Below, piece by piece: positions 771-45,234 of a DNA stretch of 64,000 nt (position 1 is the stretch's first letter; each line of letters starts with the position of its first letter). This stretch comes from Sphagnum compactum (taxonomy: Eukaryota), in assembly GCA_965153455.1 (NCBI GenBank), contig OZ234493.1, positions 11,460,213 through 11,524,212 on the forward strand, in the 5' to 3' direction. Under the pieces are notes generated by a model. That model was not told where the DNA came from and made no database searches. It saw only the letters and a program-made list of their open reading frames with translations. A program made the position numbers and the translations under genes.

Positions 771-2279
771 TTTACACACAAAACTTGGAATGGGGAAATT
801 CTGAAAAGAACAAATTAAATCTAAAACTATATCCAAACTCATCACTTTAAGAATTTTTCAAATTCTAAGAACTTTACAAAAGTGGAAAGTCCCATTTTTA
901 ATCAAATTGGGATCTACCCCAAATGGAAGGTGTTACCCAAATTTAAAGACATGTGACCTAATAGGTTGAAAATGTAAGCAAATTGTTAAACTTAACTTAT
1001 TATTTAACCTAACCATATTTCTCTGTGTGTTATGAGTGTACTAAATTTCACTATAATGGCAATTTTGGTACAAAATAAAGTACGAGTGGACTAAATTCAC
1101 AATTGAACAAAGTGATGTTGTGATGATTTTTCTTACTATCTTCAAATGTGGTAGTTGATAATCTCTTGAGATAGTAAGGTTGGGTGGAAAATATCCTCCC
1201 ATTGTTGTGCAAGAATCTTTTGCAATATTTTTGTACCTTGAGTGTTTGACAACTACTTCGTCGTTCATTTAGCCCTAACATGCAAAGAGAAGAAAATCAT
1301 TTGGCTTAGTGGCCTAATTATGAGCTTGAAAAATTAATTATGAAAGAAATCCTGTATCTCTTATTTGATTGAACCCAAAAGAAGCAAAGGGACGCCCCTA
1401 AATTTTACTTACTAACAACATTAAAAAAATGGGTAATTGGTTTTACACAAAATTTTAAGTAAAACCCAAATGAATTTTCTAGTGAGCAATTTTGGACAAG
1501 ATTGCAACTTTTGCAAGGTAGGTCAAAACTCACAAACCACACGAAAATTTAAAGAAGTGAATTCACCCACCCAAAAGAATCTTGATTCTTGCCTTCTTTC
1601 TCTAAAGGAGATAGAACAAAACAAAGGCTCAAATTCTAGCTCAAGAACTGCACGTCAAGAAAAGAATGATAGAAACAAAAATGAAAAAAAATCATGAATT
1701 CACCTTGACACCCAATTACATCAATTGGTGAATCAATCTCACTTGCTTGATGCTGGTGATGATGACGACGACGAGGTATCAAGGATAACATTCATATATA
1801 TAGATAGACAAATACCCAAAATCAATGAATACATGGAAAAAGGAATTCATGAATGTTGAAACATATTCAAATTTCAAGATAAGGACAATTGGGTGCAAGT
1901 CTAGCGGATTGTAGCACAATGATGGGCACACCTGCATTCAGATCATGTAGAGTTCAAGGTCTTGAATATTTTCCTTACTAGTACGTTCCCTGCAATTAGT
2001 GCCAAAATCTCATTAAGGTGGTTGATCCCCCATAGCTTCCAAAAATGTAATAAGAGACAAAAAGGCCCAGGTGTCTTGGGTGGATGCAAGCTGTTTCAAA
2101 GCTCTCCACGTCTACCATATCCAAGTCCCTCTTTTTCCGTCTTTTTTGGGGCTAAATTTAGCCAAATTTATTTTCAAAATGGTTAAAAATATGTGTTTTG
2201 TAATTTCCTTTTTAGTAGAAATTTTTTGACAATTTTTTGGAAAAATCTCCAAATTTCTCTATTGGGTTTCTGGCATGTA

Positions 2280-2395
2280 GCCAAAAATGTAAAAGAGTCT
2301 TGAAATTTCTTTTACTTTTATACATAATCTATATTGAAATTTGGCTAAATCTTCTTGTGGATGATTGTCATTTTGGCTACATCATAAAATTGGGA
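2280..2395 (+). repeat. Short dispersed repeat, related copy in opposite orientation at ~15600-15720
   Basis: TTGGCTAAATCTTCTTGTGGATGATTGTCATTTTGGCTACATCATAAAATTG resembles the reverse complement of CAGTTTTGAGATATAGCCCAAGTGGCTATCATCGGTAGGAAGATTTAGTCAG. Confidence 0.5.
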
Positions 2396-3894
2396 AAAAC
2401 AAAAACCCTATTTGATGTTCCAACTAATTCATTTGGTTTCACATTTTGAGGGATGTTGTTCACCCCATGTTGTCAGCTCCACCCCTACTACCCCCTATTT
2501 GAGTTTGGATCAGTGTACACTTATTATCACATTCAACATGATGCACACTTATGTCATGTTAGTGTGATCTCCTTGCTCCATTCTCATTCAAGAGTGTGTG
2601 TATGTTAATAGTGCGATTTATATTAATTAGTTCATGGGTGCCCTGACATTTTAAAAAAAAAAATTCTTTTGGGGAAAGAATCATGATGATTAAATCAACA
2701 TCGATTTTTTGGGAACATTGGGTACTCCCCAATATAAGCACTTCTTTTGACCCCATATTGTAAAATACAAAAAAACATGTTTGCTTATTACCCACCTTTT
2801 CAGTTTATATACATGGGAGTTGAACTTTCAGCAAAACATATGGGATAAAATTGAGGTTCTATATGAAACATCTTGGGAGAACAACCTGGGAACTTAGGGA
2901 ATATTTTAGGAACGTGATGGGAACACATTGAGAACAAGGAAAAAAACAAAAAATCCCCTCCCAAGATCAACATCTTGTTGCACCTATGTTCTCATTACAT
3001 CACCTTTTTCTTGCAACTTTTTATTTAGTGCAAAATTTTAAAATTTTAACCTAGCACTATCAGCTACATTACATCTTTTGTGCTTTAGATCTGAAAATTG
3101 GAAATGTGAGCTATCTTTGGATATCTAGTTTTCAAAACCTTTCCAAATAGTGCATAATTCAAGGATAACTTTTGATCCTTCAAACCTTGTTTCAAATATT
3201 CAAAACACCATGGGATTTCAATTTTAAAATGGGAGTGTTAGGATGAATTCATTCTTGCACATGTGAATGTGTCTAAATCTTAGAATATTCTTTCAACCCG
3301 ATTCCCTTCTCATACTTTAACCTTAATGATGAACCCAAGGCTAGGGTCACAACACAATGCATGCATGTGAGTTGGGACATAAAATGAAACTAGCCTTTTA
3401 CCTATACCTACTTAGTAAGGACATGAAGTCAATTTCATACCATGGTTATATCAATCTCAATATTAAAAATATACCTATCTCGTTTTAACCAAAAATTAAT
3501 TTCAAACCTTAATACCACAAGGAAGTTCGTATGAAAGTTTTTCAAAAATCCAATACGAATATCAAGTTTGTATGGAAGTTTTTTGAAAGATCTAATACCA
3601 ATATGAAGTGTTTCAACTTGAATGAAAATCCTAAAAAGTTGGAACTTTACATCCAATTTTTCAACTCAAAATTTACCACCCCACCCACCTAGACAATTCC
3701 ACATTATAACAAGCAGGTTCACTTTGTAATTGTTTTGCCCTTGCAAGTTCAAACTTCCAACAATTAAAATAGGAAATGTTCCACGAAATCCCCCAATGAA
3801 GATGAAGGTGGGTTGTGACTAGGTGTGGTTACGTGTAGTTTCTCTTAGGGGCGTCAAATAATAAACCCCCATTCAAAGGGTTATGCGAGAGCAG

Positions 3895-4536
3895 CTAAGC
3901 ACTTTGTGAAAGAATGATTGTTTTTGTGATCAAATTACAAAATAAATATACAAACTCTATAGAATCATCATTTACTGGAATAGGATAAGTTATTTATTTT
4001 TGTATTCTGTTTGAAGTATTATAATCCACCAAAGATACAATAGGTCTTTGTAATCGATCAGCTTCAAGAATAGCCATGGAATTTTAATTTGCATTTTATT
4101 ACTAAACAATCTGGAATATCGTGTGTCACAATTCCTTCAAAAAAATATTGCATCTTTCTAAAACGTGGAAAAGAATTGAAAGGCGAAGATGTGGAAATGT
4201 CCTTTAAACTGGAATGCGTGGAGAAATCCTGAAAGTGTTTTTGTACATTTTTCATATGTTTCCAATTAGTTAAAAAACCCCCAATCCATTTATGATGATA
4301 TAGCTTTGATTGGTTTTTTTTGCCATTTGTTGAATTATTTTATTATATTCTAGATTAGTATTTACCAATAAGAAATGGCCTTTTGCACGAATAAGAAATT
4401 CAATCAAATTTACAAGCCTTTCGTAAACAAATAAATGTTTTTGCTAAATTAATAATAGCCATTTCATTTCTGAATCCGTATAAATATCCTTGAAAATTAG
4501 AAGTAGGTATTCGATGGCCCAGATATGCATTTGTGC
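3895..4536 (-). pseudogene. rps2: Mitochondrial ribosomal protein S2 pseudocopy (NUMT), 5'-truncated, frameshifted, with internal stop
   Basis: Minus strand reads TNAYLGHRIPTSNFQGYLYGFRNEMAIINL...KHFQDFS...FEGIVTHDIPDCLVI / SMAILEADRLQRPIVSLVD...ITYPIPVNDDSIEFVYLFCNLITKTIILSQ, matching bryophyte mitochondrial Rps2. Confidence 0.9.
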
Positions 4537-4642
4537 CTCGTATCGTCCTTGCCATATAAGAGTGAAGCAATATTGAATGGCTAAGGAATGATCATGTGCT
4601 TGACTTGAAATTGAGTTGGCTTTCCAAAAAGAGACTCTTATT

Positions 4643-4928
4643 ATGGATTTAGTAAAATATTTAACATTTTCTATGATTCGTTTTCTTTTAGGTATTTGCG
4701 AAATTTTTTTGAATAGAAAAAATATTTTTATTATGTTAATGTTGATTGAATTATTGTTACTTGCAATCAATTTGAACTTTTTGGGTATTTTATGTTTATT
4801 TGGATGATATGATGGGTCAATTATTTGCTTTATTTGTTTTAACGGTAGCAGCTGCAGAATCTACTATTGGGCTGGCCCTTTCGGTTATAACTTTTCGAAT
4901 TCGCGAGACTATTGTAATGGAATTATAA
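4643..4928 (+). pseudogene. nad4L: Mitochondrial NADH dehydrogenase subunit 4L pseudocopy (NUMT), frameshift near 4780
   Basis: [47 protein letters not shown], then shifted frame [36 protein letters not shown]. Confidence 0.93.
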
Positions 4929-5154
4929 AAACTGCAAAGCACACCATAACCTACAAGGCCTTTGGCCCAAATATGGTGTAACGTTGATTATAGTTTGATA
5001 AGAGGGCCAAAGGCCCATATGATTGTAATTATAGATTGGCTTGGTAATACAAAGGCTATTGACTTATCATCATCGTTTGAAATAGTATTTAGGCCATGAA
5101 GGTCTGATAACCAAAAAATAAAAAAAAGATTTTCACAGATTAAACCAAGTTTTG

Positions 5155-5238
5155 GCAGATACGATGGAATTGGTAGACATGCAAAGTTTAGGTCTGACGA
5201 CCATAATGTTCGTGGGGGTTCGAGTCCCTCCATCTATA
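5155..5238 (+). tRNA. trnL: Degenerate mitochondrial tRNA-Leu(UAG) copy (NUMT pseudo-tRNA)
   Basis: GATGGAATTGGTAGACA D-arm, TTTAGGT anticodon loop, long variable arm, GGGGGTTCGAGTCCCTC T-arm; anticodon and acceptor stems mismatched. Confidence 0.8.
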
Positions 5239-6504
5239 CAAATTGGAACTTGAAGTTATGTAATCATTAGACCTCGAAGATCTGCGGCCTTTCCTTTATT
5301 TGACCTCTCTTTGTTCGATAACCTTTATTTGACCCATTGTGCCTTTAGGGGAATGAGTTAGTTGGTACTTGTTGTATCCATAATCTGTTTTACTAATGGT
5401 ATATCGTACCATGATGCTACCATGTATGTTATGAAGAACTTGAATCATGTGTAGACAATTGGAGAATTGGTTCAAATCACAAAAATCTACACAAAAAGAT
5501 AGGAGCATCATAAACCCTTGAAACCTAAGACAAGGTCTGGCTTCCCATGCACTTATTTTTCCTTGAAAAACAAGTTGTTTCAAAATTCAATCCAAGTTCA
5601 ATCTCATTTTTTGAATTAACTAATTAATTAATTATGAAGTTTCAAAACATTGTGACAGGGTAGTTCAAAGTCGTCATTAGGTGACTCCAGGAAACATGAC
5701 TTCAGAACCTCAAATCCTCATAATGAGTACCCAATATGGCCAAACAAAGATATTTGGAACCCACACTTCTTAACCCCTGCTTTCTACGAAATGCACACAT
5801 ACTTCAATTTGAGAGTAGGCATCAACTGCTGCACTGATGCCTCGATATGCGACAAGGAACCCTAAACCATAAATCCTAAATGCTGTATACTGGACTCTAA
5901 TGGGTTACAATAGCCTTGAATAGAAAGAATGTAAAGGTTTGGTTGGCAATTGGCCTCCTTGACTATTAAATCCTCTAGCTTTGGCAGAGTTGACAAAATC
6001 TGTATGATGGTCCATTTCTTACAATACAGAAACCCTAAACCCTAAACTCGTCCATGGAAAATCTGACAGAAGAACTTGCCATCTACATCAGAACCTCAAA
6101 ATTGTGTGGTGTTGGTGCCTGACGAGCAGCCTCTTGGACATACGCTTGGGGCCATACTGCCTCCATTTCAAAAATGGGTTGTGTCTTTGCAGGGCTGCTA
6201 TCTTGGGAGGTCTCTGATCCCAAAACTAGTCTCAGCCTAGGATGTTTAGCTTCAGAGTTCATCGCAAATGTGTGTCTCCACCCTACTAGCTAGTCCACAA
6301 CCACTGGCACCTCATTTCATTTCTGCGACATCTTCAATGTCAATGAAGAGGGCTGTCAGGCAATTTAGATTCCAGGAAATCTCAAAATGGAACAATAGTT
6401 AAGAATATTGTTCTTTGCAAAGCTCTCTCCAAGACGAAAGGGTTTCAATTGATATCTGAGGAGGAATCACCCAATGAAGCCAAAAGTGAACACTTTCGGA
6501 CACT

Positions 6505-8670
6505 TCAGTTTTCATGAGCTGCCACTGATATTGGGCAGATTGGAGATGTTTGGATGAGAGAAAAAACAATCAATGCTGGAACAGTCCATGTGAAGATGGG
6601 TGTCATCACAAGTACTGTTGACCCATAAGCTCTCGTAAGACTTGATAATAGCTGTGCCCCCACACATTTCCCCCAGGGAAAATTAGAACCAATACCAAAA
6701 ACACTAGACAATCGGGACTGCAATCACCATCCTTGAAGAGAATAAGTTTATTAAAGGGAGTTGACGGAAACCTTACCCGCCAGTGAAGAAATGTAATGGC
6801 CAAGCACCCAACAAACAGCCCTTTCCGAATGAGCCGGTTACAAAGGCTGCAATATTCATTCTGGTGTTCCAGTTTCCTATTGAGAAGTAAAGTCTCAAGT
6901 TCCCCCTCTGGCTGCGGTTCACACCTCTCCTTCAAAACAACCCCCGACTTTGATGCTGGAACTGACCTCATCTCCTTCAATGATGATCGCACACTTGCAT
7001 CCCTCTGGATGCTTCACTGGTAGGAAATACCAGGAGCCATTCGGACAATTTCGATCCACTCTGTCGGTGGCATTTTCTACATGCAGCTCTCTCAGCTGAA
7101 AGAGCAGAGACCATCAAGATCAAAGGGAAAAGCACAGTGTACATGTGAGGAAGAACTATTCCCATGATGTCTGGCACTCCTAATCCTGAAACTTGATTTA
7201 CAGAAGTTACATTTGAAGGCTTCACCGACCAACCCCAAACAGACATGTGACCAATAGGAAAATCATCCGCAAGCACCCGACCAGAAAACCATGGCAGAAA
7301 TGTCAAAGACATCACATATGCTAATGAACATGCCCAAATACAAGTGTTGCGGGCATTCTCAAAAACCACCCAAAATGGAACTTTGATCAATTTGAATATC
7401 ATTGTTCTGAAATCAGATGCTGGCCTTAAAACTGTCATAACCCACTCCTCACATAAACCAGCCTTTTCTAACTGAAAATTGAACACCTTTGGTACAATCA
7501 ACATTGAGAAGACAAATGCAACCATTCCCCACAGTAAGAACGGATAGAGTTTCTCTCACCGGAAGCCCATGCCAAGGTACCCTAGCCATGTGAGTCTAAA
7601 ATTTCCCAGGTGTCCATTTACAGAAAATGGACGTGGCTCACTGACTGTAATGCCCTTGTCCTTCTCTTCCAAAATGATCTCCAACCAATACCGAGTGGGA
7701 GAATCATCAGCATAGTCTGCACTGTTCCAAACAGCATCATAGTAATAAGGCCCACTCTCACGGCTAATGCCAGAGCTGTAATCGACGAGCCTCATTGAAA
7801 TCTCCTCAACTACAGTTGAGGCAAGAGATTTAGCATCAATAATTCTTGCCTTCATCCAGATGGGAGGTGTGTTCGAGAATATGAGCACCCGTATGCGGTC
7901 CAAGGGCACAAGATTTTGACGGAACCTTGAAGCATGGTTAACGAATTGAGTGGGAAAGTTGGAAGTATAATAGTTGGCATCACGAACTCCTGGTCTGACT
8001 TTTCTTTGGGTGGTATCAATTCCACATCCACAAATGAGGTGTGACCGTTATCTGTGGCCATTATACGCATCATTCAGCTCACCCGCCAATCCCCCATTTC
8101 CCACTCCCAGAATTCACCCACTTGCTTATATTCTGGAAACACGAGCCTGCCAAAATGACGACAATTCATTGGTACAAATCTCTGCATACTTTTCTTGACT
8201 GAAGAACATTCCTCGCGACTAAATTGTCAGCACTTAGAAGTGGATGAATAATTCCTTGATCTTGACACTGAAATCTTAGGATGGAAAGTTCCAAGTTAAT
8301 GTAATCAATTAAGCAAAAGAGCTCTGAAGAAAAGACTGTGTATATAACAAGGTGCAGTACCTGTGATGCTTATAAAGGTGCTTCCCAAATTTTGTGTGCA
8401 AGTGGCCACAGACGTATGCCGAAATGTTGTGCTTTGCAAAAATTCCTTCTGGGTGTTTCGCTGTCTCTGTTGAGGTTGTGAATGACATAGGAAAATGGCC
8501 AAACACAATTTTTGTGACGGGGGCAGAATTATCAGGGTCCCATTGGCTGAGTTGTTGGTCAATGTCCTCAAGGCTCTGGTCAGTGCCCGAAAACATTTGA
8601 TGGGGCCCACAGCCCAATCTGCATGGCATCATCAATGCCCACAAAGAGGTGCTTTCGCCCATCCACTCCC
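6505..8670 (-). pseudogene. TMEM62/At3g03305-type membrane metallophosphoesterase pseudogene, 3' part only (exons ~8670-8361, 8146-6777, 6651-6505)
   Basis: Motifs RKHLFVGIDD..IGL..PSNVFGH, FGHFPMSF, AYVCGHLH, EFWEWEMGDWR, LPTFPL, LPWFSG. Lesions: frameshifts ~8585, ~7915, ~7000; stops at 8074-8076 and 7556-7558. GT-AG introns retained. Confidence 0.85.
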
Positions 8671-15500: not shown

Positions 15501-17558
15501 TAATCATGCATTGCCTGCAACATGAGCTCTGGCATAACACTTCAATAATGCACTGGGTGAAATCAGCAAACAGCAGGAAATGTGTGGATCAATATTTTTT
15601 GGGTCAGTTTTGAGATATAGCCCAAGTGGCTATCATCGGTAGGAAGATTTAGTCAGATTTGGCTATGATCTAGATGTGGCATTAGAAAACATCTTTCTCT
15701 TATTTTTGGCTACCTACTTGAAAACCATGTATGGAAATCAGAAGTTTTTACTTTGAATTTGGTTGAATTTTGCCTCTTGACGATCTCAAAAAGCATTTGA
15801 TTTTAGCACTTTTTAATTTATGGCTTAGTTTTTTTTTGGCTATAGTTTTCTGGTAAAAGAGAGGTTGGTGTGTGGATGTGAACAAAAGTCATGATGATAA
15901 GAATGGAGGAGGCCAGAGGGAAAAAGTAAAGCGTGTTTGACAAGTCTCAAGGTGACATTGCATATTCCATCCTCAATTATGAGTAGAAAATAGAGATACG
16001 TGTTCCAGAAAAGAAAGTAAGGAATTGTTCAGTGGCCTAGAAATCGGTAAAGCGCGTAGGCTACGGGCTGAAGAGTCACGGCAAACCCCTTCTAGAAGTT
16101 TCTGGGGGAGGAGAAAATGAAGAAGAAGAAACATCTGTGAGAAAAGTCGAAAAAGGAGTAAGAGAAGAGAGTGGGAATTCCAGGGATATTGTGAAGAGGA
16201 AAGGGGTTGATTTTTTTGGGGAGATCTAGTGGAAAGATCAGCTTAGCTTGCGGGAACCTGTGATGTGAGGGACACCCATCATACCCTGTGTATGCTTTTG
16301 AGATGGCAAAGGATTTGTAGCAGGTTTTATGAGACCAAAAGGTTAAGAGAAAAATATTTATGAGAGCAGTGAGCAAAAGGAATTTCAGTGGTGCGAAATA
16401 TGGCAAATTCATATGGCCTCAAGGGAAAAGGAGTTGATCTTTCACAAGGGCCACCAAAAAGAAAGGGAGATGCTGTGCAGATCCCTGATGTGATTGAGAC
16501 ACCTTTGGTCCCCGCTGAAAATGCTCCTTCAAGCTCCAGATGGCACAGCAATGTGGTGCTTCTTCTTGATCTTCTCATGAGCTTTTCTTTGCACAGTTTT
16601 GTCTTGGGTTTTCCCAAGTTCCATGTTGAAGTTTGATTTTTCTTTGCTTTTTTTAATTTTGTTTGGGTGTTGACAATTTTCCTTGACCCTTACAACCATG
16701 ATAGCTTATTGTCCTCACCAAGCATCAGGAGAAGGAGGTCTAGTTCAGATTTGAACTCCCAACCAGCGGCTTCGCAACCATACCCTTTAGGCACTAGGGT
16801 ACCTGAATGTCGTCGATCATTTACAAGCTTCCTTGTCATACATTTTCAGTTTGCCTACTTTCCAGTTTGTTTGTTTAGATAAAAAACAACAGGAAATGGA
16901 GTCATCATTATAGCTCTTACATTAGGCTGGCGACTCAGTTGCTATATAACAAGTAGAATTGGTGAACGGGAAATTCGTCAATTGGCATTGACTAAGAATA
17001 TATTGAAATTGTAAGGTTTGGAACTTTCATTACAGATTATGAGTTAAGTTCAATGTGTAGTCTTGATCCAACAACCTAAGGCAAATTATTAAAATGCTCT
17101 TGGACATTCTTATTGGGTTTGTGTCCCAATTCCTTAGGAGTTCCAGGCCTTAGTGGCCCAAATGTTGGGGAAAATGTCATGAAATGCAAATGAACCAAAC
17201 TAGATGGTTGAGTTAATCAACCCAAACTTGAAAGAATCCCATTCTTCGCATTAACCTTTATGATTGGCATACGTTCCACTTGCTATGTAACAATATTTAT
17301 TTAGTGAACTATGTTTTGAAACTTTGAGGTCTATGACACATGTGAATGATCTTCATTTGTTAGTCATGCAAGAGAGATTTCGTATTATCCCATTCATCTA
17401 TTATTGTCTTCTTGTTAGACTTAATCTTTTCAATTACTTATTGCTTTTATCTAACTACTATAATTTGTATATTGCATTTCTCTAATTTAATATATAGTCA
17501 TATAATTTTCAAGAGATGTTTGAAGAATAGTGTTGACTTTTTTTCATTTTCTTTGTAG

Positions 17559-20500
17559 AAATATCTAGTGCATGATTTAAATCCCGCTTGCAATTCCAAT
17601 AATCCAAACTTGACCATCGTTTTTTTCCATGGGATTGCTTTTGGCACAAATGATGAATGGAAAGAAACATGGACAACGTGGCCCACCAACAATAGAGAGG
17701 AGTGCATATGTTGGCCACAAAAGTGGCTACCCCGAGACTTGAACAACAATGTTCGAATTTTATCATTGTCCTATGATTCTAACATTGTGGCAAGTGTTCA
17801 CAATGATGTGATTGAAATTGGCAAAAACCTCGTTCAAAGTTTGATTACAAATTCAAGGTGTGACAATCTCCTCTATTTATGCACACATTAATTACTTCTC
17901 CTTGTGTACATTAAAGATAATTGTTTACATCTTTAGAATTTTTTAAATGGTTTGCACAAGTTAATTATTCATGTGTGCTAATATTGTGATACACACCAAC
18001 AAGTTTCCATTTATTTGAATTCTTAGATTCATGTAGAAGAACATAAAATGGGGCTTAAATGCAAATGTTTTTGTTGAGGATAATAGCAAAATCTATTTTC
18101 ATATTATAAGTCCAGGGTACAACTAGTTTGGTTTTGATGCCAATTTTTAATTCGCCCTTTTTGAAGTTTTATCTTTGGTAATGCAATTAATTGAATTAAA
18201 TTATATTAATACGTGTAGAAAATTTGCATCCATTTCATTGCAAAAAGATTATTTAAAAAAAGGGCATATCTTTTTTTATTTAAAAAAAAAATTTGAACGA
18301 TATTTCCAAGGTAACACATAGAAGATGAGTTGTACATTAACAAAAGAATGTAAACACCTACATACTTGTACATAATAATTGTTTTACAAAACATGGTTGT
18401 CACATTTTTTAATTAGATTGATGGAGTCACTAAATAATAAATGATAAGTGACAAGCAAATCAATTATGAACTTCTGGTTTAGGTCATGTGTGAATTGAAA
18501 AATTGCCCCAAGTATAATGAAATAAATTTGTACATGCTAATACAATGTTGATAATGGAATTTTGGTGCATTGTTGAATATTTTGTAGTTATCAATCCCTT
18601 TGGGATGGACCGGTGGCATTAATTGCTTATAGTTTTGGAGGTATTGTACTCAAAAGCTTGGTGGTTGAAGCTCGCAAACATGTAAATCAAAGCCCAAGAA
18701 ATGATTTCGATGATGAAGTACACAAATGTTGTGAGACATTTTTAAACAATGTTAAAGGTGTAGTATTTTATGGTGTACCACATGCTGGCGGTACCCAATA
18801 TTTATCACATTATTTCATTTGGCAACATCAACAAATCAACACATTGAGCAAGTCTACAACCCAATCTGGTTTTTTAAAAGATTTAGAATCTTTCAACCCA
18901 CAAATGGAGCACCTTTCAACGGATTTTAAAAATGCCGTTCATGAAGACCTCAACATCTATGCATTTGGGGAAGGATTACCACTCGATGAACATTGGGTAA
19001 AATTTTCATTTCACCATATTAAAAGTTATCCAACTAGGTTCATTAGTTGAACGTTTTTTGTATTGTCAAAACTTGTGTGGGATCATGTACTCAATATTTT
19101 TAAATATATTAATGTGGAGAAGGACTCATGTGTTTTATGAACTTTGTTTCATGAATTACTATTGATGGAAAGGAAATTTGATTCATTTCAAACAGCAAAA
19201 AATAGGATTAAAATTTTCCCTTCATGAAATCAATTCTATATAAATATTTGTGAGGAAAATCATAACATCATTGAAACATGTAGGATTAATGAGATTCAAA
19301 ACCAATAACTTTGTGATGTATTTATATAATTTGCTTACCAAAGGGTTGAAGGAAATTACTTTTACACAAAATATTTCATTTTTATTCAAACATCAATCAT
19401 TATTAAGCTATAGTTTCCACCACCATTTGAAATTACTATGTTACTTATAAGTTAAAGCATAAGTGAATAAACAAATCAATGAGTTTCATTAACTTAATCT
19501 TTTGCACATGCAGGGAATTTTAGTGCCATTTGCCTCAGCTATCCAGTTGTCAAACAATAACCATTACAAAATTGAGGATGTTAATCACTTGACAATTTGC
19601 AAGCCACCGAACAAAGATCATCCAAGCTATTTTTTATTGTTAAAATGTTTGAAAATATGTATGGAGGTAAAAACATCAAATCTAAGTCTTTTGATTTCAT
19701 ATATGTTCATGTAATTTGATACACATTAGGTTGTAACACACTTGAGGTGTATCGCATATGCAATGTCATATATATTAGTTATAAAATAACATATAAATGA
19801 CCTATATTTTGTGAATTTTGACAGAAAAATATATTGCTTCCACCTTTGCCATGTCATGAGGTGGCATTGATTGACAAAGCAAAAGACATAAACATCTTAT
19901 TACAAAAGGAATCTATCGTTGGTTTGGTTGGAATGGGTGGGATTGGGAAGACCACTTTGTGCAAAAAATTCTATCATTTGTTTCACAACCAATATGACAA
20001 ATCTAGCTTTTTGGAGGATGTGAAATCAAAGGACAATATCAACGATGTCATAAAACAACTCCTACATGATTTGTGTGGCAAAAGGCTATGCAAGGATGAA
20101 AATGTGAATCAAAAAGACCTTGACCAAATTAGGCAATGTATGAAATCAGAGAAAGTGTTAGTGGTGGTGGATGATGTTGATAAGGCGGAGAACCTCACAT
20201 CCTTGCAACTTATCATTGATAAGAGTGCCAAGAATGCAACTTCTAAAAGCAAAGTACTTGTGAATTGTCGAAATTGGCAAAATTTGAAACCTCATGTAAG
20301 TGAGGATGGAAAAGTGATCATGAAATCTTTGGAGAAAGAGCAAGCAAGGGAACTCTTTATGTTCCATGCATTTGGTAATGCAAATCATGTTCCAACAAAA
20401 GATTTCAAAGATATATGTATGAAGATTATAAAAGCTTGTGGGGGGCTCCCTTTAAGTCTTGAAGTATTGGGTTCTTTTTTGTGCAATACCAAAGAATTGG

Positions 20501-22213
20501 AAATCTGGAAAGGTGCATTGAGCAAATTGAAAAGCGGGCAAAGTTTCACCGGGGGAAATGATAATGAAGAGCTTTGGAGTAAACTGAAAATTTCTTATGA
20601 CTACTTGGATAAGCAACATCAAAACATGTTTTTAGATATTGCTTGTTTTTTGGGTGGTTTGAAAATAAGTACAATTTGTCGAGCATGGAGTGGAGATTAT
20701 TTACACCCAAAATTTGGATTACAAAATTTACAACATAGATCTTTAATCCAATGGGGAGAAAGTCGAATCTTGTACAGACATGAACAATTACGAGACATGG
20801 GTCAAAATATTGCAATGGAACTTCCAATTATGAATCGATTTATATGGAAATCAAATAAGCCAAATTCCTTTTTACAAAAAGATGAGGTTGACACCATACT
20901 ATTTCAATCCTATAATTTTATTTTGATTTTCTATGATTTTTTTTTTGTCCCAAATCAAATGTTTTACCTTTCAATCTTGATTTTATAAATACATGTTTTT
21001 TTAAAAAATATGGGCATTATGATGAAATGTTGTTTTATATTGATAATTCTTTTGTTTTCATTTCATGTGATAGGTGGGGGAAAATTTAGAAGGCATTTCA
21101 TTGAAAAAATGTTTCAATTTGCTTGCATTGGCCCAAATTGGATCAAAGGGATTTCACAACCTTAGGTTGGTTGACCTAACAGAAGCCTCACCAACTATTG
21201 TGAAAATGTGCATGCAAAGGTGAAATTTGAATAATGTGAAGTGGTTGTGCTTCAAAAAATGCATGATTCGAAAGTTGCCAAGTAATTTGTTTTATTGTTC
21301 ACAATTAAAAGTACTTGATTTGACAGAATGCCTAAGTTTGGAAAACATACCTTCATGTATTGGCCAATTGAATGCACTCCAAGAGTTAAATTTGAATGGG
21401 TGTTCCAACTTAAAAGAACTTCCTTCATCTATTGGCCGATTGAATGCACTCCAAGAGCTTGATTTGAGTAGGTGTTCCAAGTTGAAAAAATTACCTTCAT
21501 CTATTGGCCAATTGAATGCACTCCAAAAACTTTATTTGTGGGAGTGTTCCAACTTGAAAGAACTACCTTCATCTATTGGCCAATTGAATGCACTCCAAAA
21601 ACTTTATTTGTGGGAGTGTTCCAACTTGAAAGAACTACCTTCATCTATTGGCGAATTGAATGCACTCCAACATTTTTTTTTGTCGGAGTGTTTCAACTTG
21701 AAAGAATTACCTTCATCTATTGGCCAATTGAATGCACTCCAACAGCTTTTTTTGTGGGAGTGTTCCAACTTGAAAGAACTACCCTCATCTATTGGCCAAT
21801 TGAATGCACTCCAAGAGCTTTCTTTGTGGAAGTGTTCTAACTTGAAAGAACTACCTTCATCTATTGGCCAATTGAATGCACTCTAAGAACTTGATTTGAT
21901 GGGGTGTTCCAACTTGAAAGAATTACCTTCATCTATTGGCCAATTGAATGCACTCCAAAGGCTTATTTTGTCGGAGTGTTTCAACTTGAAAGAACTACCT
22001 TCATCTATTGGCCGATTGAATGCACTCCAAGAGCTTTCTTTGTCGGAGTGTTCCAACTTGAAAGAACTACCTTCATCTATTGGCGAATTGAATGCACTCC
22101 AAAAGCTTTTTTAAAATGAGTGTTCCAACCTGAAAGAACTACCTTCATCTCCTGGTCAATTGAATGCACTCCAAAAGCTTAGTTTGAATGGAAAGTTGAA
22201 AGGCAAAAAATGA
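17559..22213 (+). pseudogene. Alpha/beta-hydrolase-NB-ARC-LRR (HNL-type NLR); exons 17559-17857, 18588-18996, 19514-19666, 19825-20886, 21074-22213; start exon not identified; 3 stops in the LRR exon
   Basis: Hydrolase motifs IVFFHG, WPQKWLP, RILSLSYD, AYSFGG, GVVFYGVPHAG, NHLTICKP. NB-ARC motifs GMGGIGKTT, VLVVVDDV, CGGLPL, MFLDIACF, RHEQLRDMG. Splice phases are mutually consistent. Stops at 21221, 21884, 22112. Confidence 0.92.
21340..22190 (+). repeat. Array of 12 near-identical 72-bp LRR-coding units
   Basis: TGAATGCACTC recurs every 72 bp from 21369 to 22161; unit LKELPSSIGQLNALQxLxLxxCSN. Confidence 0.95.
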
Positions 22214-24863
22214 ATGTTGGGCACTTTTACATACCATGTCAACACCTCAATTGCAAGTGCTACTTAGTAAACATGGCAACAACCATTGTGCCATGTTCTA
22301 CAAACATTGGTATGCATGGTTTTAATAAACAAATATTTCTTGAAGTTGCGAAAGCCAACAAAACCACAATGATGACAATATGTTTGTTATCTTATAAAGA
22401 CCCCAACAAGTAGATTTTGAAAACTATCAAATTAATTGATGATTTCTCATAAACATTCAAATCCTAGGTTCCATGATAGATGGTGGGCAAAAATGACTCA
22501 ACTTCCAAGGAAACATTATTCACATTAGGATGTGACCTTTCACCTAGATCCCTATTAAAAGAAATTTGGCATTGAAAAAATAATAATAAAACTAGTTTTT
22601 TCTATACTTCAATGCATAAAAATATATATATGGACAAGGATAGCTTGATGCCCAAAAAAAGAAAGGACTTTTTTGTCAATAGATGCATTGTCACTATTAG
22701 AAAACGGCTAAAACACTCATTTGGTTTGCCACCCACCTATGGTGCAATTGATGTTGGATAAACAACCTCTTCAAGTTGAAAATTTGTTGAACACCCATTT
22801 CACTAACTTGTGGTAGTTTCAATACTCTTGTTGCTAGTGGCTTGTCATGGATGGTTGCCTGATTGGTAAATTGTTCCATCAAGTTGTTCGCTATCATCAA
22901 TTGCAAATCCTCTTGTATGAATGGATAGGTTCGTAAGAGATGTCCTTGTTTATATAAGGTACATTTTTTTGATTATGTGTTCTAATTAATTTTGAAATAA
23001 ACTTGGTTGGAACCTTTTTGGAAATGTGGTTGTAGACATTGCTAATGTAAAAGTCCAAGATCGTTGAAACCACCATGAAAAATAATTGGCACTCTTGCCA
23101 CTAGACAAGTTCTTCCCCCGCTTGTCCCATTTTCACCATATTGTTTTTTGCCCTTACAAGAACATTTTGTGAGTAGTGTTGTAGTGGTCTACCGCCCATT
23201 GATTGTCTCATGTTACTAATCACTCGTTAAAAAAGATCTTTGATATGTGATAGGTCTTATTTCAAATCTTGGTACAACAAGTATATTTCAATGGATGCTT
23301 ATATGAACTTGCACACAACACCCCTAAATCTTGACAAAAAAAAAAAGATTACAAAATTTCCTCCAAATCCAACTCCTAAGGATGGTCACCAAACAATAAA
23401 TATTAATTTAATTCTATGAAATTTATATCAAAACAGGTTTTAAAATGATGTTTTAACTACATGTTTTAAAATCTACTAACAATTTTATTATTAACAGTCT
23501 TGATAGGTTCTTTACTTGCACATATTAACAAGTGTTTGTTATTAAAATCCTTAGCTGATGTTAGTTTTTTTAAAACATAACCTCTACTTGTTTTGCCACA
23601 CAATATCAATGTTATTGAAGCACACAATTTTGTAAAGAAAAAGTGATACACCACAAAAAATTAGGGAGAAAAGGAAACGGTGTTCCATTTCCCTCCAAAT
23701 CCTCCTTTGAAAAAAATGAAAAAAATAAAAAAATTCTGCATCATGTCCAAATCTAAACTAGTTTTGAAATTGTTTACCTATCCAAGCTTACTTTGTCTAC
23801 CTATGCCCTAACACCTAGTTTTTCATGGTTGCAACTATGGTTCAACCTATTGTTTCATACCTAAGTTGTCTCCCTTGTGGTTGTAATAGAATTTGTTTTG
23901 TTTGTGACAATTTTTAGCACATTAAGAAAAAAAATTTGGGCAAAAATTTGAACTTGAACCCTAAACACAATTTTGATCTTTCCATTATTATTATTGAGCC
24001 TCATGCAGATTGTAGGATGTAATATTCTTTCATTGTCCATCCTCAATCTTCTATTTCCCCTTTTGTGAACTATTCTCCACCATTGCCAATTCCCATGTTG
24101 TCCCATCTCATCTTAAAACCCACTTTAGTTTTCACCCAAAAAACTTTCATACAAATTTTCACTTCTAAAAAAGCCTTGTTTGTTGATATTCCTGCTGTTT
24201 AGATTAGTTACAATTGCTCCCACACTTCTTCTCATAGTTGTGACAAACAAGAGTTTTCCCACTTTATGACCTCTAGCTATTCACCAAACACAACCTATTT
24301 GAAAGACATGGTGTGTTGCAAACCTTGGAGTTGCAATATTGGACGTTAGCAATGCACATAGTTACTATTATTCAAGGAGGGACAAATTGAGTAGGTTATC
24401 GTCTCCAAGTAAGCAATGCATGCTATCACTTAAAGTACTTTCAACTTTCATGTCTCATATGCCTTCAACTCTTAGTATTAGCCAAATTGTCACAATTACT
24501 AGTATTGTTAATTCAATGGCATATTCTGTGTTGTGTATGCAATCTATTCATATTGGAAGTTCGGTTCACCGTACACAGGAAAATGGAGAATGATCCTTTT
24601 TGAATTGCATCTTAGGTCCCCTCAAAATTTTGAACAATCAAACCACTTGAACATCTTTGTGCGCATTTTGTCTTTCTACAAAACTTGTACAATGTCAAAT
24701 CTCCATCAGATAGCTGACTTGATTGTCAATGACAGTCTCATGAGGCAAACATGAGAGTCTTGATATTCATTTCCAGTTCAGCCAGTAATTCAGTGAAAAT
24801 GGAGCTACTGTTGTGACTATATAGGTGTAGTGACTTACTCCAAAGCCAATTCAGCTTTTAGTA

Positions 24864-27496
24864 TCAATTGCTGCCAAGAAGAGAGGCCAAACCAAGGCCA
24901 ATGGATTCCTTGCCATGTTTGTCAAATGGATCATCACCAATGTAGAGGTCAAACAGTGACCGACACAACAATGCACTTTGCAAATTACCAACCTCCTTTC
25001 CATCAACTGCAGAACCAGATCAACAGAAACAAACCCCATCAGAAATTTGAGCACATCTCACATCAGAGACAAGGTTCACATTTCAAACTGCTCTTTCCTG
25101 GCATTGCATATGCCAAATGGGTATAGCCATTACTTTTGGTCTGAAGAACATAGCCAGGGAGCCGAGTGAGGTCAATGGAAGTCCCTCGGGGAAGCTTTAT
25201 GTCATCCTTAAATGCACTGGTGAACCTGTGAAAACAACCCATGTCAAAACCTTTTCTGCCACACTTAGCACTGGAAATAATTACTCCATCAGTGAGAGGC
25301 TCACTAAGTGAAACCTTCCTGAAAACATTCAAAATAAAAATGATTTGTCAATGTTGTACTAAATGTCCACTATGAAACCCTCTAAATGAGCCCAATAAAC
25401 TGCTGTTCATGCTCTACCAAAGGTCACAGACCCAAGGCATGGATGTAAGGTTGAGACCAAAAGGCTTACAAGCAAAAATAGGAAAATGAAGACAGCAGAT
25501 CAGGCAGGCACACAGGGAGCTAGCTACCTTGAAAGCAGATCGCCATCTTCCCCATTGCTGAACTTTTTGATTCGACCACCTACTGACTCTTCAAAGGCAC
25601 TACGCATGCTGCCTATTTTAAGGTTCCCATACACAATGACCAAGCGGACTGTTAGTCCCACATCCTTTTCTATAACATCTTTATAGAAACCTGGATTCTT
25701 TTTCAGTTCATCAGAGGTCATGCTGCCATACTGGACACTCAGCTTGCCTCTCAAACTTTCAGGATCGGCATAAACTCCTGTCAGTCATCACAGTGCAAAC
25801 CATTGATGAGTACCAATCATCACTTGATTCCTGATGATAAATACAAAACTCAGGAGGCCATAATAGGTATTGGCAAAGGAGAAGAACACTTGCTCTGGCT
25901 ATCATAATCTTCCATTGATGGATGGATGTCCAAACTAGATCTATTCTTAAGAATTCTTGAGGACTTCTGTTTGAAAGCACCTTTCCATAATCACTGGGGT
26001 GTGACATTTGACCCTTTGCACAAGAATCCAACCCTAAAAAATAATATGAAAACAGTGGAGCAAATAAACAGGACAGAGCAAGATGTGCATATCAGCTGTG
26101 AAAGACATAAGAGGTAGAAAATTACCGAATGTGTAGACGGTAATTTTCTTCAATCCCAATATGCTCTTTGTTCGCAAACCTGTACCAGTAAGCAGCTGGC
26201 ATTTGTTCAAGACGCCTGGGAATGTCATCCCTGTCTTTGGCTCCACTACCTGACCACACCAAGCATTCTGTCTTTCAACAAACTTTGAATAAAAATAAAA
26301 CTCATGCCATAATCCACTTCTACCATGACCAGAATGCTTCTTAAGACAGCACCTCTCCATCAATCCTTACACAATAAATTCATCACTGCCCCCCTTGAAT
26401 GTGGAACTACTGAGAGAACGTGCTATCACTTCTCAACCCTGGAGCAAAAACAGAGATGCACAGAAATATTGAATACGATGCTACTTCCATGATCAAGCAG
26501 GAAAAGATGTGGCATTGCTGAGAGATTGTGACACTGCTCATGCCTGGAGCAAAAGTATGAGATGAAAAGAATGCACACAACATGATGATTACCATGCCAC
26601 TTCCGTGATCAAGCAGCAAGAAATGTGGCATTGCTGAGAGAATGCAACACTGCTCAATCCTAGAGCAAAAATAGGAGATGAAAAGAATGCACACAACATG
26701 ATGATTACCATGCCACTTCCATGATGAAACAAGAGATGTGGTATTGCTGAGAGAATGTGAGAGATTGTATGAGAATGCGACACTGCTCAATCCCAGAGCG
26801 AAACTATGAGATGAAAAGAATGCACACAACATGATAATTATCATGCCACTTCCATGATGAAGCAAGAGATGTGGCATTGCTGAGAGAATGAGACACTGCT
26901 CAATCCTGGAGCAAAACTATGAGATGAAAAGAGTGCACACAATATGATGATGATCATGTGCTGCTTCCATGATCAAGCAAGAGATTGACATTGCTGAGGA
27001 TATGAAACATTGCTCAATCCTGGAGCAAAACTATGAGATGGAAAGAATGCACACAATATGATAATGATCACCATGCCGCTTCCATGATCAAGAAAGAGAT
27101 GTGCAATTGCTGAGAGAATGTGACAGTGCTCAAACCCTGAAGCCAAACTGGGTGATGAGATTCCAGAGCCTGAGAGAATCAAAGACCCACCTCCTCCTCG
27201 ACCTGGCCGAGTCCAGCATTCAGCGAGAGCGCTGCAAAAGAAGAAGAAGAAGACGAATTCTTCAACCAGGAAAAAGCCAACTCGCTTCCACCCATCAGTG
27301 TTTGCGAGATGGTCTGCTCCAATGCTGCCCTCTGCGCGGCGAGATGCGGAGTGCACAGAGTTAGACCTGCTACCGTAGCAGCAGCAGTCCCCACACCCAC
27401 AATCGCTTTCCATCGCTGGCTTACGCGAGTCCAGTTGCTCCCGGCGGGAAATTGCCCCCATCCAGACAACCCTGACGGCGTCGGAACCCCAGACAT
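24864..27496 (-). CDS. FAP1: Chalcone-isomerase-fold fatty-acid-binding protein FAP1-like, 5 exons (27496-27191, 26249-26126, 25777-25528, 25225-25134, 25006-24864)
   Basis: VVEPKTGMTFP..GLRTKSILGLKKITVYTFGVYAD..VRLVIVYGNL..AFEESVG.RIKKF..FTSAFKDDIKLPRGTSIDLT..SALLCRSLFDLYIGDDPFDK; GT-AG sites with matching phases; N-terminal Ser/Ala-rich extension. Confidence 0.9.
26420..27142. repeat. Intronic minisatellite, ~6 copies of a ~115-120-bp unit in FAP1 intron 1
   Basis: Recurrent CTCAATCCTGGAGCAAAACTATGAGATGAAAAGAATGCACACAACATGATGATTACCATGCCACTTCCATGATCAAGCAAGAGATGTGGCATTGCTGAGAGAATG. Confidence 0.9.
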
Positions 27497-34600: not shown

Positions 34601-35319
34601 TTACTAGCTTAAATCACCATAGGACCTTAAAAGTGAAATAACTTCATTGCATTTTACTGATTTCACCTAGTGAAAGTTATTTCATTATAATATCACTATG
34701 TAGACATCATGTTTCATTTCTAGTTAACATAATTCACTATTACAATTTAATATAGCAAATAGGTTTATTTCTATATTTTTTAAAATATTCTATCTATGTT
34801 ACTTTATGATATATCCTATATTATTTGAAGCTACTTTAGTTATTCTAACTTATATTTTATGTTATTATAGGCTATTATAAATTATTGTACCCTAAATTAT
34901 TATATGTTATTTTACCTTAAAGTATTTTAACTAGTTTATTATAAGCTTTTAAATTATTAAAATTAAATTATTCAACTAATTTTAGGCGATACCTTAGGTT
35001 ATTTTATTTAAAATTAATATATGTTATTTCATGTTATACTTTAAATTATTCAAGGTCATTCTACTTAATGTTATTATAAATTATTTTATCTTAAGCATAA
35101 TAACTTTAAAATAATAACAAAATATAATGACCTAAAGGAAAAATAACTTAGAATATAAAATAATAACCTACGAAAAATAATTTTAAATACCTTACAATGT
35201 AATAACTACCAATAGCCTATGATATTATAACATAAAATATCAAACAATAATTTATAATACAATAATCACCAATGGTTGTAATATAAGATATAATAACCAA
35301 CAGTAACTTATAATACAAT

Positions 35320-35975
35320 AACCATTAATAACCATTAATAAAATAACCATCAATAACCACCAATAAAATAACCACCAATGGCTTACAACAAAATAGGCAC
35401 CAATAGCCATTAATAGAATAACCACCAATAGCCATTAATAGAATAACCACCAATAGCCATTAATAAAATAACCACCAATAGCCATTAATAGATTAATCAC
35501 GAATATCCATTAATAGATTAATCACAAATAGCCATTAATAGAATAACCACTAATAGCCATTAATACATTAATCACGAATATCCATTAATAGATTAATCAC
35601 GAATAACCATTAATAGATTAATCACGAATATCCATTAATAGAATAACCACAATAGCCATTAATACATTAATCACGAATAACCATTAATATAATAACCACT
35701 AATAGCCATTAATAAAATAGCCACCAGTAGCCATTAATAAAATAGCCACCAGTAGCCATTAATAAAATAGCCACCAGTAACCATTCATATAATAGCCACC
35801 AATAGAATAACCACGAATAGCCCCCAATAGAATAACTACTAATGGCCATTAATAGAATAACCACCAATAACTATTAATAGAATAACCACTAAAAAACATT
35901 AACAACCACAAATAGAGTAGGTACCAATAACCATTAATAACCACCAATAGCACTAATAAAAGAACAACCAATAGC
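35320..35975. repeat. ~25-bp minisatellite inside the nested CACTA
   Basis: AATAACCACCAATAGCCATTAATAG and variants, more than 20 units. Confidence 0.9.
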
Positions 35976-35999
35976 CATATATTATAATTGCTTAGGATT

Positions 36000-36470
36000 G
36001 CCAAAAATAATCTAAGGTGAAATAATTTATAATAAACGAAAATAGCTTAAGGTGAAATAATTTTCAATAGCCAAAAGTAACTTATAATAGCTACAAGTAG
36101 TCTAAATTGAAATAATTTACAATAGCCAAAAATAACATAAAATAGACAAAAAAACTTACAATAACTGAAAATAGCATAAGGTGAAATAAATTAAAATAAC
36201 CAAAAATAATTTATAATAACTGCAAGTAGTCTAAATTGAAATAATCTACAATAGCAAAAAATAACATAAAATAGACAAAAAAAACTTACAATAGCTGAAA
36301 ATAGCCTAAGGTGAAATAAGTTAAAATAACTAAAAATAATTTAAAATAACCAAAAGTAGCCTAGGGTGAAATAGTCAAAAATAACCAAAAGTAATTTAAA
36401 ATAGCCATAAATAGCCGTAAATAATGTAGGGTGAAATAATTTAAATTAATGAAAAATAGTCATATAATAA
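36000..36470. repeat. A-rich compound repeat with a ~129-bp higher-order duplication
   Basis: AAGGTGAAATAA units; AAGTAGTCTAAATTGAAATAAT...AAAATAGACAAAAAAACTTACAATA at ~36095 and ~36224. Confidence 0.75.
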
Positions 36471-44854: not shown

Positions 44855-45234
44855 TGCAATCCGCCCCCTCCTGTCTGCCCAAGCTTTCCTTCTACAATTC
44901 TCGAGCAATGCCGAGAATGAGTTCAAATTCACTCGCCGTGGTACTCTAGTCTAGACCCCCAGAAAGCTTGGGCAGACACCTCATTCCGTTCCAGCTTAAG
45001 GACTTTCGGAAATTCAGGGCTTGCGATGTAACCCGCATCGCAACCTGCGATACGGTATTGCTCGCAACGGCCGTGCAATGCTGTTCGTATCGCAACGGAT
45101 GAAGGTTGCGAAGTCGGGGGCTTCGCTAACGTAGGAGGAAGTTAAAGGTTTTAGGGCTTTGGTTTAAGTAACGTATGTAGATGCGAAAAGGGATGCGATG
45201 GTAGGGGGTTTGCAAGGGGCTCGCAAAGTTTTAG

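Follow-up and report, generated by a model that had tools for sequence, protein, structure and literature searches.

A regular 72-bp leucine-rich repeat array in the last exon of a probable Sphagnum hydrolase–NB-ARC–LRR gene, and the family pattern of its unit number and exposed codons

How a plant immune receptor comes to carry leucine-rich repeats (LRRs) that are nearly copies of one another is the question raised by a 64,000-nucleotide stretch of Sphagnum compactum DNA (contig OZ234493.1, positions 11,460,213 to 11,524,212 of the forward strand), hereafter called the window. The original prediction, made from the letters alone, had claimed that an exon of a nucleotide-binding LRR receptor (NLR) gene in the window consists of 12 near-identical 72-bp units that vary mainly at the ligand-facing strand, and had proposed a modular, recombination-driven system of receptor diversification in a bryophyte NLR family. 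The analysis described here points to a narrower answer. The units probably make up the repetitive portion of a hydrolase-type NLR gene's last exon, a 72-bp coding minisatellite that was diversified at exposed codons and whose unit number is labile in the family, the copy in the window being truncated.

The twelve units were recovered both by a register cut and by Tandem Repeats Finder, which reported a single array (21348-22180, period 72, 11.6 copies, 88% matches, 0% indels). Identity at a lag of 72 was 0.871 in the array, whereas 1000 shuffles averaged 0.264 and did not exceed 0.309. The unit scaffold reads LKELPSSIGxLNALQ-L-L--CSN. The units were numbered 0-11, and units 1-10 were often analysed apart from the outer units 0 and 11. 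Mean pairwise nucleotide identity was 84.6% across all 12 units (range 72-97%) and 88.2% across units 1-10 (78-97%); the outer units were the most divergent (72-83% identity), unit 11 alone being 72-76% identical to the others. The variation was concentrated at four codons and was not evenly spread: in units 1-10, codons 16, 18, 20 and 21 had 10 variable nucleotide columns of 12, compared with 14 of 60 elsewhere (Fisher p=1.5e-4). By the Nei-Gojobori method, the synonymous divergence (dS) of the scaffold was 0.09 and the nonsynonymous divergence (dN) at these four codons was 0.65 in units 1-10; the corresponding values for all 12 units were 0.12 and 0.73. The twelve xLxLxx strings listed in the original prediction were exact. 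The scaffold, claimed there to be almost invariant even at synonymous sites, is not wholly so: of its 20 third positions, 6 differ among units 1-10 and 10 among all 12 units. Similarly, the claimed recurrence of variants in non-adjacent units was seen for the partial motifs ELDL and ELSL, whereas the sole hexamer that recurs exactly, KLYLWE, is found in the adjacent units 2 and 3. The amino-acid similarity score Psim, calculated with our own consensus-distance formula and not with T-REKS, was 0.83 for 12 units and 0.86 for units 1-10, and mean pairwise amino-acid identity in units 1-10 was 0.80. A blastn search of the array against the window gave 23 matches, all of them inside the array itself, and no second copy.

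The array closes the last exon of its host, probably a Sphagnum gene for an immune receptor of the alpha/beta-hydrolase–NB-ARC–LRR type (Hyd-NLR). The parts of this gene are listed in Table 1 together with the other features of the window. Six exons aligned at 81-98% identity to P0002 and P0003, two proteins labelled Sphagnum compactum, and exons 1-5 were free of stops. Exon 5, which has 1062 bases or 354 codons in frame, matched NB-ARC (PF00931; E=4e-31, 108.6 bits with a cut-off of 23.5) and the winged helix WHD_ROQ1 (E=1.7e-10), and the last exon matched the NLR-type LRR families LRR_14 (E=1e-33) and RPS4B-like LRR_13 (E=1.4e-25). The match of DUF676 (PF05057, putative serine esterase) to residues 113-246 of P0002 was barely over the threshold (E=1e-4, 22.4 bits with a cut-off of 20.3), and the hydrolase-like exons of the window taken singly gave no Pfam match at E<=0.01. 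The window contains only one NB-ARC, which is 98% identical to that of P0002. Among the first 67 protein matches to this NB-ARC, 66 were labelled Sphagnum, and the relatives come from eight named Sphagnum species. The assignment to an NLR LRR exon of a bryophyte is borne out by the NB-ARC domain, the LRR families and the close match in Sphagnum compactum.

Table 1. Positions of the host gene, its repeat array and stops, and other features of the window
Feature	Position	Strand	Evidence or remark
Host Hyd-NLR gene	16400-22210	+	Array ends last exon
Exon 1, begins with ATG	16400-16567	+	tblastn of P0002/P0003: 93-97% identity, aligned stretch stop-free
Exon 2, first part of alpha/beta-hydrolase-like (DUF676-like) domain	17559-17870	+	94% to P0002 residues 53-156, open
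Exon 3, hydrolase-like, YSFGG (GxSxG-like) motif	18586-18996	+	95% to P0002 residues 152-288, open
Exon 4, end of N-terminal domain, then GT at 19667	19514-19666	+	98% to P0002 residues 289-339
Intron 4	19667-19824	+	Exon 4-exon 5 joint in 172 X24 RNA reads (loose ends at 19823)
Exon 5, NB-ARC and winged helix, P-loop GMGGIGKTT	19825-20886	+	Pfam matches, RNA depth
Intron 5, GT..AG, phase 0, between NB-ARC and LRR	20887-21073	+	94 spliced X24 reads; internal depth 13.5
Start of last exon, irregular first LRRs	21074-21337	+	88% to P0002 from residue 693
Premature TGA, Arg in P0002, polymorphic	21221-21223	+	38 codons ahead of array
Array of 12 units x 72 bp (24 codons each)	21338-22201	+	Register LKELPSSIG..
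Premature TAA in unit 7 scaffold, Gln codon 15 to stop (ALQ to AL*)	21884-21886	+	
TAA in unit 10, codon 19	22112-22114	+	Window reads ALQKLF*
Degenerate unit 11 and transcribed 3' untranslated region	22115-22500	+	RNA depth
TMEM62-like gene exons	6606-8047	-	TMEM62_C E=9e-47, Ig_TMM62 E=6e-22
CACTA-type transposon coding region, split over several frames	45155-48154	+	Transposase_21 (tnp2) E=3e-40, DUF4218, DUF4216
Other tandem repeat	26456-27149		Tandem Repeats Finder
Other tandem repeat	35288-36416		Tandem Repeats Finder
Other tandem repeat	53506-54089		Tandem Repeats Finder

A model of an open 220-residue stretch of the repeats was made with AlphaFold2 (predicted local distance difference test 88.7, predicted template modelling score 0.86). 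In the model every unit contributes a strand, which spans unit positions 16-18 or 16-20, and a short helix over positions 6-10. The model superposes on the LRR structures of XopL (TM 0.88), SHOC2 (TM 0.84) and RPP1 at 35-42% identity. In the standard LRR geometry, positions 16, 18 and 20 face away from the core on the concave side. Each unit would form one turn of an LRR solenoid, with the fold built by the scaffold residues; codons 16, 18, 20 and 21 would line the ligand-contacting face of the beta-strands, as would codons 23 and 24 to a lesser degree. The claim that variation lies mainly on the ligand-facing strand is consistent with both the enrichment at the four codons and their location on the predicted strand.

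The regularity of the array is shared by related proteins. The 45 family proteins that bear arrays hold 477 units, 3-23 each, and the spacing was exactly 24 residues in 420 of 432 successive pairs. Over the 477 units, entropy stayed under 0.6 bits at most positions of the scaffold and reached 2.5-3.1 bits at unit positions 16, 18, 20 and 21. Repeat self-identity, taken at a lag of 24 over the best 120 residues, was 0.71-0.92 in 43 of the 45 members and 0.57-0.58 in the other two (P0035 and P0066). The corresponding values were 0.19-0.34 in other Sphagnum NLR classes with LRR families (P0062, P0080, P0087, P0093, P0115), 0.31-0.55 in Ceratodon NLRs and 0.14-0.29 in angiosperm NLRs of the TIR class; the last values are far lower, in line with the contrast to angiosperms drawn in the original prediction. 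Subfamilies have scaffolds of their own. LQELPTSIG.. is common to the units of a subfamily with 61-66% NB-ARC identity, and LKELPTSIGQLTTLQ is common to those of a subfamily near 50% NB-ARC identity. Outside Sphagnum, the Ceratodon purpureus proteins P0105, P0111, P0109 and P0097 have regular 24-residue arrays of up to 29 units, strongly conserved position by position, on a scaffold of their own (LTCLPESIGKL..). Arrays of this regular type may therefore be common among the NLRs of mosses. Many annotated family members of about 690-750 amino acids (P0007, P0012, P0016, P0020, P0032 and others) are hydrolase–NB-ARC proteins without LRRs, some stopping in the first irregular LRRs and some reading into the intron after the NB-ARC exon. 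These members are either truncated genes like that of the window or artefacts of gene models.

In order to compare the family at the DNA level, metagenome contigs were scanned with the NB-ARC exon. This gave 354 stretches, 289 of which encode relatives, and the best 80 of the 289 (L001-L080) were analysed, a set without the more distant subfamilies (NB-ARC 50-66% identical). Arrays of 1 to at least 77 units were present in 67 of the 80 loci, and the unit search by script found no units in 13. Arrays of 59 to at least 77 units (4-5.5 kb) occur among these loci, for example in L047 (7505-13052) and L039 (7521-11813), and long arrays typically end in a tail of units with stops and frameshifts past the open frame. 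In 1724 units, a single codon accounted for 85-99% of the units with the consensus residue at most scaffold positions (CCT 97%, TCA 98%, GCA 99%). The NB-ARC exons had a median dS of 0.218 between loci (5-95%: 0.15-0.29) and a dN of 0.094. Since the scaffold dS (about 0.1 in the window and about 0.2 in the family) matches the NB-ARC divergence of the paralogs, the units seem to be young, which explains why the DNA of the scaffold hardly appears to vary. The codon uniformity of the scaffold thus looks like a mark of young units rather than of special constraint or continuing homogenisation.

The variable codons behaved differently from this scaffold. The ratio of nonsynonymous diversity (piN) to the pooled synonymous diversity of the scaffold (piS, 0.187) was 1.81, 1.64, 3.23 and 2.60 at codons 16, 18, 20 and 21, respectively. 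Codons 23 and 24 had ratios of 1.60 and 1.83, and the remaining 18, among them the interleaved or adjoining leucines 17 and 19 and cysteine 22, had ratios of 0.07-0.89. Divergence at the variable codons was 0.30 per site compared with a neutral level of 0.087. The excess of nonsynonymous change asked for codon by codon was thus found above the neutral level in the family. Most variants at these codons can be reached from a consensus codon by a single step, as with GAT, TAT, CAT and AAT at codon 18; this fits the diversification of one young ancestral unit. Because amino-acid changes at exposed codons outpaced neutral changes, it appears that diversifying selection acted on these codons in the history of the family.

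Unit number is labile. In near-identical loci (NB-ARC dS <=0.055), matched units differ by only 0.1-2.2 bases of 72, yet whole units were gained or lost: L006 and L007 have 23 and 27 units with two 2-unit gaps, L019 and L023 have 33 and 34 units and differ by one unit, L057 and L062 have 24 and 21 units with one 3-unit gap, and L001 and L004 both have 57 units with four unit gaps. On the other hand, unit number and order were identical in L006 and L012 and in L018 and L020. Whole-unit gaps were present in 6 of 8 presumably allelic pairs with NB-ARC dS <0.06, a count that omits L055/L079 (gaps at a contig end) and the paralog pair L005/L079; some or all gaps of L042/L046 and L001/L002 are at a contig end. 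Polymorphism of copy number was observed between near-identical metagenome loci, and the window has 12 units where P0002 has 23, at 98% NB-ARC identity. Duplicated blocks of at least two units occurred in 26 of 53 arrays, one case being a 13-unit block of L039 that was tandemly duplicated with 2 differences. Unit pairs with at most one difference made up 1.76% of adjacent pairs, 0.74% at lags of 2-5, 0.32% at lags greater than 5 and about 0.003% of the pairs drawn from non-allelic loci; inter-locus exchange of units is unproven. Because the units of each subfamily share scaffold states of their own, arrays would have been renewed from few units over longer times. Several arrays have similar terminal units (..FFIYKT / IFIYKT, MFHLSR, KLHLSR), which suggests that the array edges are conserved and the interior turns over.

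The reading frame ends inside the array. Units run past the first in-frame stop or frameshift in all 33 complete non-redundant arrays, with a median of 14 in-frame units of 27 in total; at least five units lie beyond the frame end in 25 of the 33, and a stop lies close upstream of the array, as in the window, in 6. Likewise, all 14 long annotated proteins examined end within a unit, at differing places. The number of in-frame units differs even between near-identical loci (17 vs 1, 13 vs 24 and 15 vs 2), and open arrays of 34 to 48 units exist (L011, L070, L001, L047). At the scaffold, divergence per site at codon positions 1 and 2 compared with position 3 was 0.065 vs 0.089 in in-frame units (ratio 0.73) and 0.087 vs 0.087 in tail units (ratio 1.00; different from in-frame units, p=3e-12).

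The window gene is transcribed and spliced. In X24, a stranded polyA RNA run with 151-base reads that were used at >=95% identity and may include reads of close paralogs, depth was 157-281 over the NB-ARC exon (bins 19794-20827), 60-127 over the LRR exon and array, and 90-113 from 22144 to 22500. No abundant alternative joint was found in the array with X24; four reads join 22177 back to 21544. Of the stops in the last exon, the TAA at 22112 (KLF*NE) had been noticed in the original prediction, and the TAA at 21884 and the TGA at 21221 had been overlooked. The TAA at 22112 is probably the ordinary stop of the gene, because P0002 ends in ...LNALQKFF at the corresponding place of a unit. Base 21221 was C in 49 of 101 X24 reads, the remainder having the T of the window, and was mostly C in the DNA contigs of runs X1, X2 and X8; the TGA is therefore a real, expressed state that is polymorphic or paralog-specific. 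The window copy is a truncated allele: its TGA before the array and the TAA at 21884 would together reduce the product to hydrolase, NB-ARC and about two LRRs.

Three further observations concern the reads in this region. An extra A in the A-run just past the array (22204) was present in 24 of 109 RNA reads. At 21498-21601, the match of 16-53 X24 reads is confined to about 32 bases in units 2 and 3. On both sides these reads continue into other sequence, which reads as an LRR unit with different synonymous codons; they are probably transcripts of a more distant NLR subfamily. The summed DNA depth of runs X1, X2 and X8 was very high over array bins (up to about 211,000, compared with about 1,350-5,700 over most NB-ARC bins in X1), which reflects unit abundance and not copy number.

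Taken as a coding minisatellite with diversified exposed codons, the arrays would lengthen when single units or blocks of several units are duplicated in tandem and shorten when they are deleted, the mechanism being either unequal recombination or slippage during replication. Amino-acid changes would have accumulated at the exposed codons faster than neutral changes in the history of the family, under selection, and the frame would usually end in the array at a stop or frameshift, the units past it drifting neutrally.

A number of points weigh against this interpretation. The window copy is broken, so that nothing here bears on a working receptor at this locus, and the DNA contig pieces listed for X1, X2 and X8 are 74-115 bases long, none of them spanning the array, so that they speak neither for nor against the unit order. 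The family loci are metagenome contigs, whose counts and gaps may hold assembly errors and some of which may be repeat assemblies of a single sample. The selection of units by scaffold matches (>=12 or 13 of 19) deflates the apparent amino-acid variation and entropy of the scaffold. Within the four variable codons of the window, synonymous divergence is also high (0.39-0.55), and the Nei-Gojobori ratio inside these codons alone is just 1.3-1.7, from few sites. Recent changes were taken as the 172 point differences that separate matched units in 7 pairs of near-identical loci, 94 of these differences coming from L001/L004. In in-frame units, 18 of the 101 recent differences fell in the variable codons (17.8%; 16.7% expected); tail units had 18 of 71 there (25%, p=0.04). 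Recent allelic changes show no sign of either present-day selection or a hot spot. Furthermore, the median scaffold dS was 0.195 within one array and 0.214 between arrays, close to the NB-ARC level, and scaffold dS was not correlated with NB-ARC dS (rho=-0.04). As within-array scaffold dS nearly equals both between-array and NB-ARC dS and does not track the latter, continuing homogenisation appears to be weak or absent. Of the recombination-driven modular diversification proposed originally, there remain the unit-number differences, the duplicated blocks and the historic excess at exposed codons; ongoing homogenisation, shuffling between loci and somatic change were unsupported.

These same comparisons bear on a rather unlikely alternative, namely that frequent recombination or gene conversion within and between loci keeps the arrays homogeneous now, as in the fungal HNWD/het-e genes, with new specificities arising from shuffled units of paralogs. 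The subfamily scaffold states (LQELPTSIG.., LKELPTSIGQLTTLQ), common to all units of a subfamily, speak for it, and 611 of 1470 units have their nearest neighbour in the same array, compared with 2.4% expected by share. Moreover, units that match with no more than one difference were seen in 28 pairs of non-allelic loci, and the aligned units of L001 and L004 include two with 13 and 8 differences amid units with 0-4, which could be conversion. However, the within-array reduction in scaffold dS is slight, as is that in unit distance (11.3-12.4 vs 13.4), and the rare near-identical units between loci could have arisen by chance among a million comparisons of young units. It also seems improbable that a neutral minisatellite expanded in dying genes and that the variable codons merely show relaxed constraint, with no receptor diversification. 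The two premature stops of the window copy agree with such decay, as do the many units past the frame end, the stops upstream of some arrays, the neutral evolution of tail units and the even spread of recent allelic changes. Relaxed constraint, however, cannot raise divergence above the neutral level, and the excess at codons 16, 18, 20 and 21 therefore counts against it. In addition, codons 17, 19 and 22, interleaved with or adjoining the variable ones, remain conserved, in-frame units are constrained in comparison with tail units, long open arrays exist, and the window gene is transcribed and spliced.

The conserved leucine codons 17 and 19 between variable codons also argue against a local mutational hot spot, rather than selection, at codons 16-21, which we consider very unlikely. 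Such a hot spot would account for the high synonymous divergence inside the variable codons and for the slight excess of recent changes there in tail units, but a 3.4-fold hot spot would have placed about 40% of the recent in-frame changes at these codons. That the regular array of the window was produced by assembly is hardly credible. The best-matching DNA runs share just 0.43-0.53 of sampled words, and none of the DNA records listed spans the array; nevertheless, the 151-base RNA reads cover all of it, the only joint listed besides the intron is that with four reads, and 67 other loci have a like design, as do about 45 annotated proteins of the eight Sphagnum species. The least probable explanation is somatic rearrangement of units, as with the cassettes of lamprey variable lymphocyte receptors, with diversity from cell to cell. 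The four back-joined RNA reads are equally explained by paralogous transcripts, neither a donor-acceptor layout nor recombination signals were seen, and the same arrays are unchanged in separate contigs (L006 and L012, L018 and L020).

The constant ending of the frame inside the array invites a further conjecture, which we put forward tentatively and regard as doubtful. The array may be a transcribed coding minisatellite whose untranslated downstream units are a standing store of LRR cassettes, moved in and out of frame by gain or loss of units, duplication of blocks and changes of stops or frameshifts. If this were true, a haploid and largely clonal plant would obtain an allelic series of receptors differing in length and surface, and a germline cassette system for a plant immune receptor would go beyond what has been described for fungal NLRs with repeats of high internal conservation (HIC).

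Among the other repeats of the window, one group has 3-6 copies at a period of 114-133 bp, another is A+T-rich with up to 21 copies at 25, 50 and 75 bp, and a third has 2.5 copies at 198 bp (94% matches).

In the consulted text of two studies, fungal HIC NLRs are described as having near-identical WD40, ANK or TPR units, four hypervariable positions and polymorphism of repeat number (Dyrka et al. 2014, PMC4986451; Ament-Velasquez and Saupe 2026, PMC13449251). The latter text also reports HIC NLRs outside fungi, in plants, animals and bacteria, includes LRRs in its survey and sets the threshold at Psim >=0.7 (PMC13449251), whereas the former gives >85% identity over >=100 residues (PMC4986451). 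The window array lies above 0.7 by our own Psim formula, and 17 of 67 family proteins examined reach 0.85-0.92 in lag-24 self-identity, a measure that differs from that of Dyrka et al. 2014. HIC-repeat NLRs in plants have thus already been published, and such NLRs are the closest known kind to the Sphagnum array family. As far as those texts describe them, fungal HIC NLRs such as the WD40-bearing HNWD, het-e and het-d of Podospora resemble the Sphagnum family in NLR architecture, near-identical tandem repeats, variable numbers of repeats and about four hypervariable positions on the binding face, at which nonsynonymous change is in excess. The two differ in several respects. The repeats of the Sphagnum family are LRRs, and no LRR was found in fungal NLRs according to the text portion of Dyrka et al. 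2014 (PMC4986451) used here. Mean pairwise amino-acid identity of units is 0.75-0.80 here and 80-100% in Podospora HNWD WD40 repeats, as given in the portion of PMC13449251 used. Unlike the fungal genes, the Sphagnum genes encode a putative alpha/beta-hydrolase at the N-terminus, and their frame ends inside the array in all complete loci. The repeat-induced point mutation of the fungal systems has no counterpart in the Sphagnum family, and as to the concerted evolution known from fungi, subfamily scaffolds and local near-identical units speak for turnover here, and the nearly equal scaffold dS within and between arrays speaks against strong homogenisation.

In plants, the LRR copy number of resistance genes with internal repeat duplication (tomato Cf-2 and Cf-5, Arabidopsis RPP5) varies between alleles, and the solvent-exposed residues of their xxLxLxx motifs are variable. 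Cf proteins are cell-surface receptors without NB-ARC, and only a part of the LRR domain is repetitive in these genes. The repeats of TAL (transcription activator-like) effectors are near-identical tandem units too, in which a few residues per unit set the specificity, but they are bacterial, bind DNA and have an unrelated fold, so that their likeness to the Sphagnum units may be taken as an analogy only. Arabidopsis RPP5 (Noel et al. 1999) is cited for repeat shuffling in the consulted text of PMC13449251. Compared with Cf-2/Cf-5 and RPP5, this moss family has almost its whole LRR domain in a single array, which reaches at least 77 units. The hydrolase-NLR class was first described in Marchantia (Xue et al. 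2012, PMC3352924), and Sphagnum hydrolase-NLRs were named by Chia et al. 2024 (PMC11218826). The bryophyte Hyd-NLR (HNL) described there has the order alpha/beta-hydrolase, NB-ARC and LRR, as the window gene does with its putative hydrolase, and regular 72-bp LRR arrays are not described in the consulted passages of PMC3352924 and PMC11218826. No description of these Sphagnum arrays was found in the literature searched, a search to which the supplements and figures of PMC13449251 and PMC11218826 (which may hold moss examples) and most subscription journals were external. The unusual traits of the family are its arrays of up to at least 77 units, the frame that always ends in the array, and the putative hydrolase N-terminus.

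For work on such genes, it should be borne in mind that gene models end at the first stop in the array and that short-read assemblies may miscount units. The LRRs of plant NLRs are usually viewed as old and degenerate and as changing by point mutation, whereas the sensor domain of this Sphagnum family is a young, regular array. The family thus offers, in an early-diverging land plant, a clear LRR counterpart to the repeats of fungal HIC NLRs, and chromosome-scale Sphagnum genomes make the rate of array turnover, a possible link of unit order to specificity and a possible role of the truncated hydrolase–NB-ARC forms testable.

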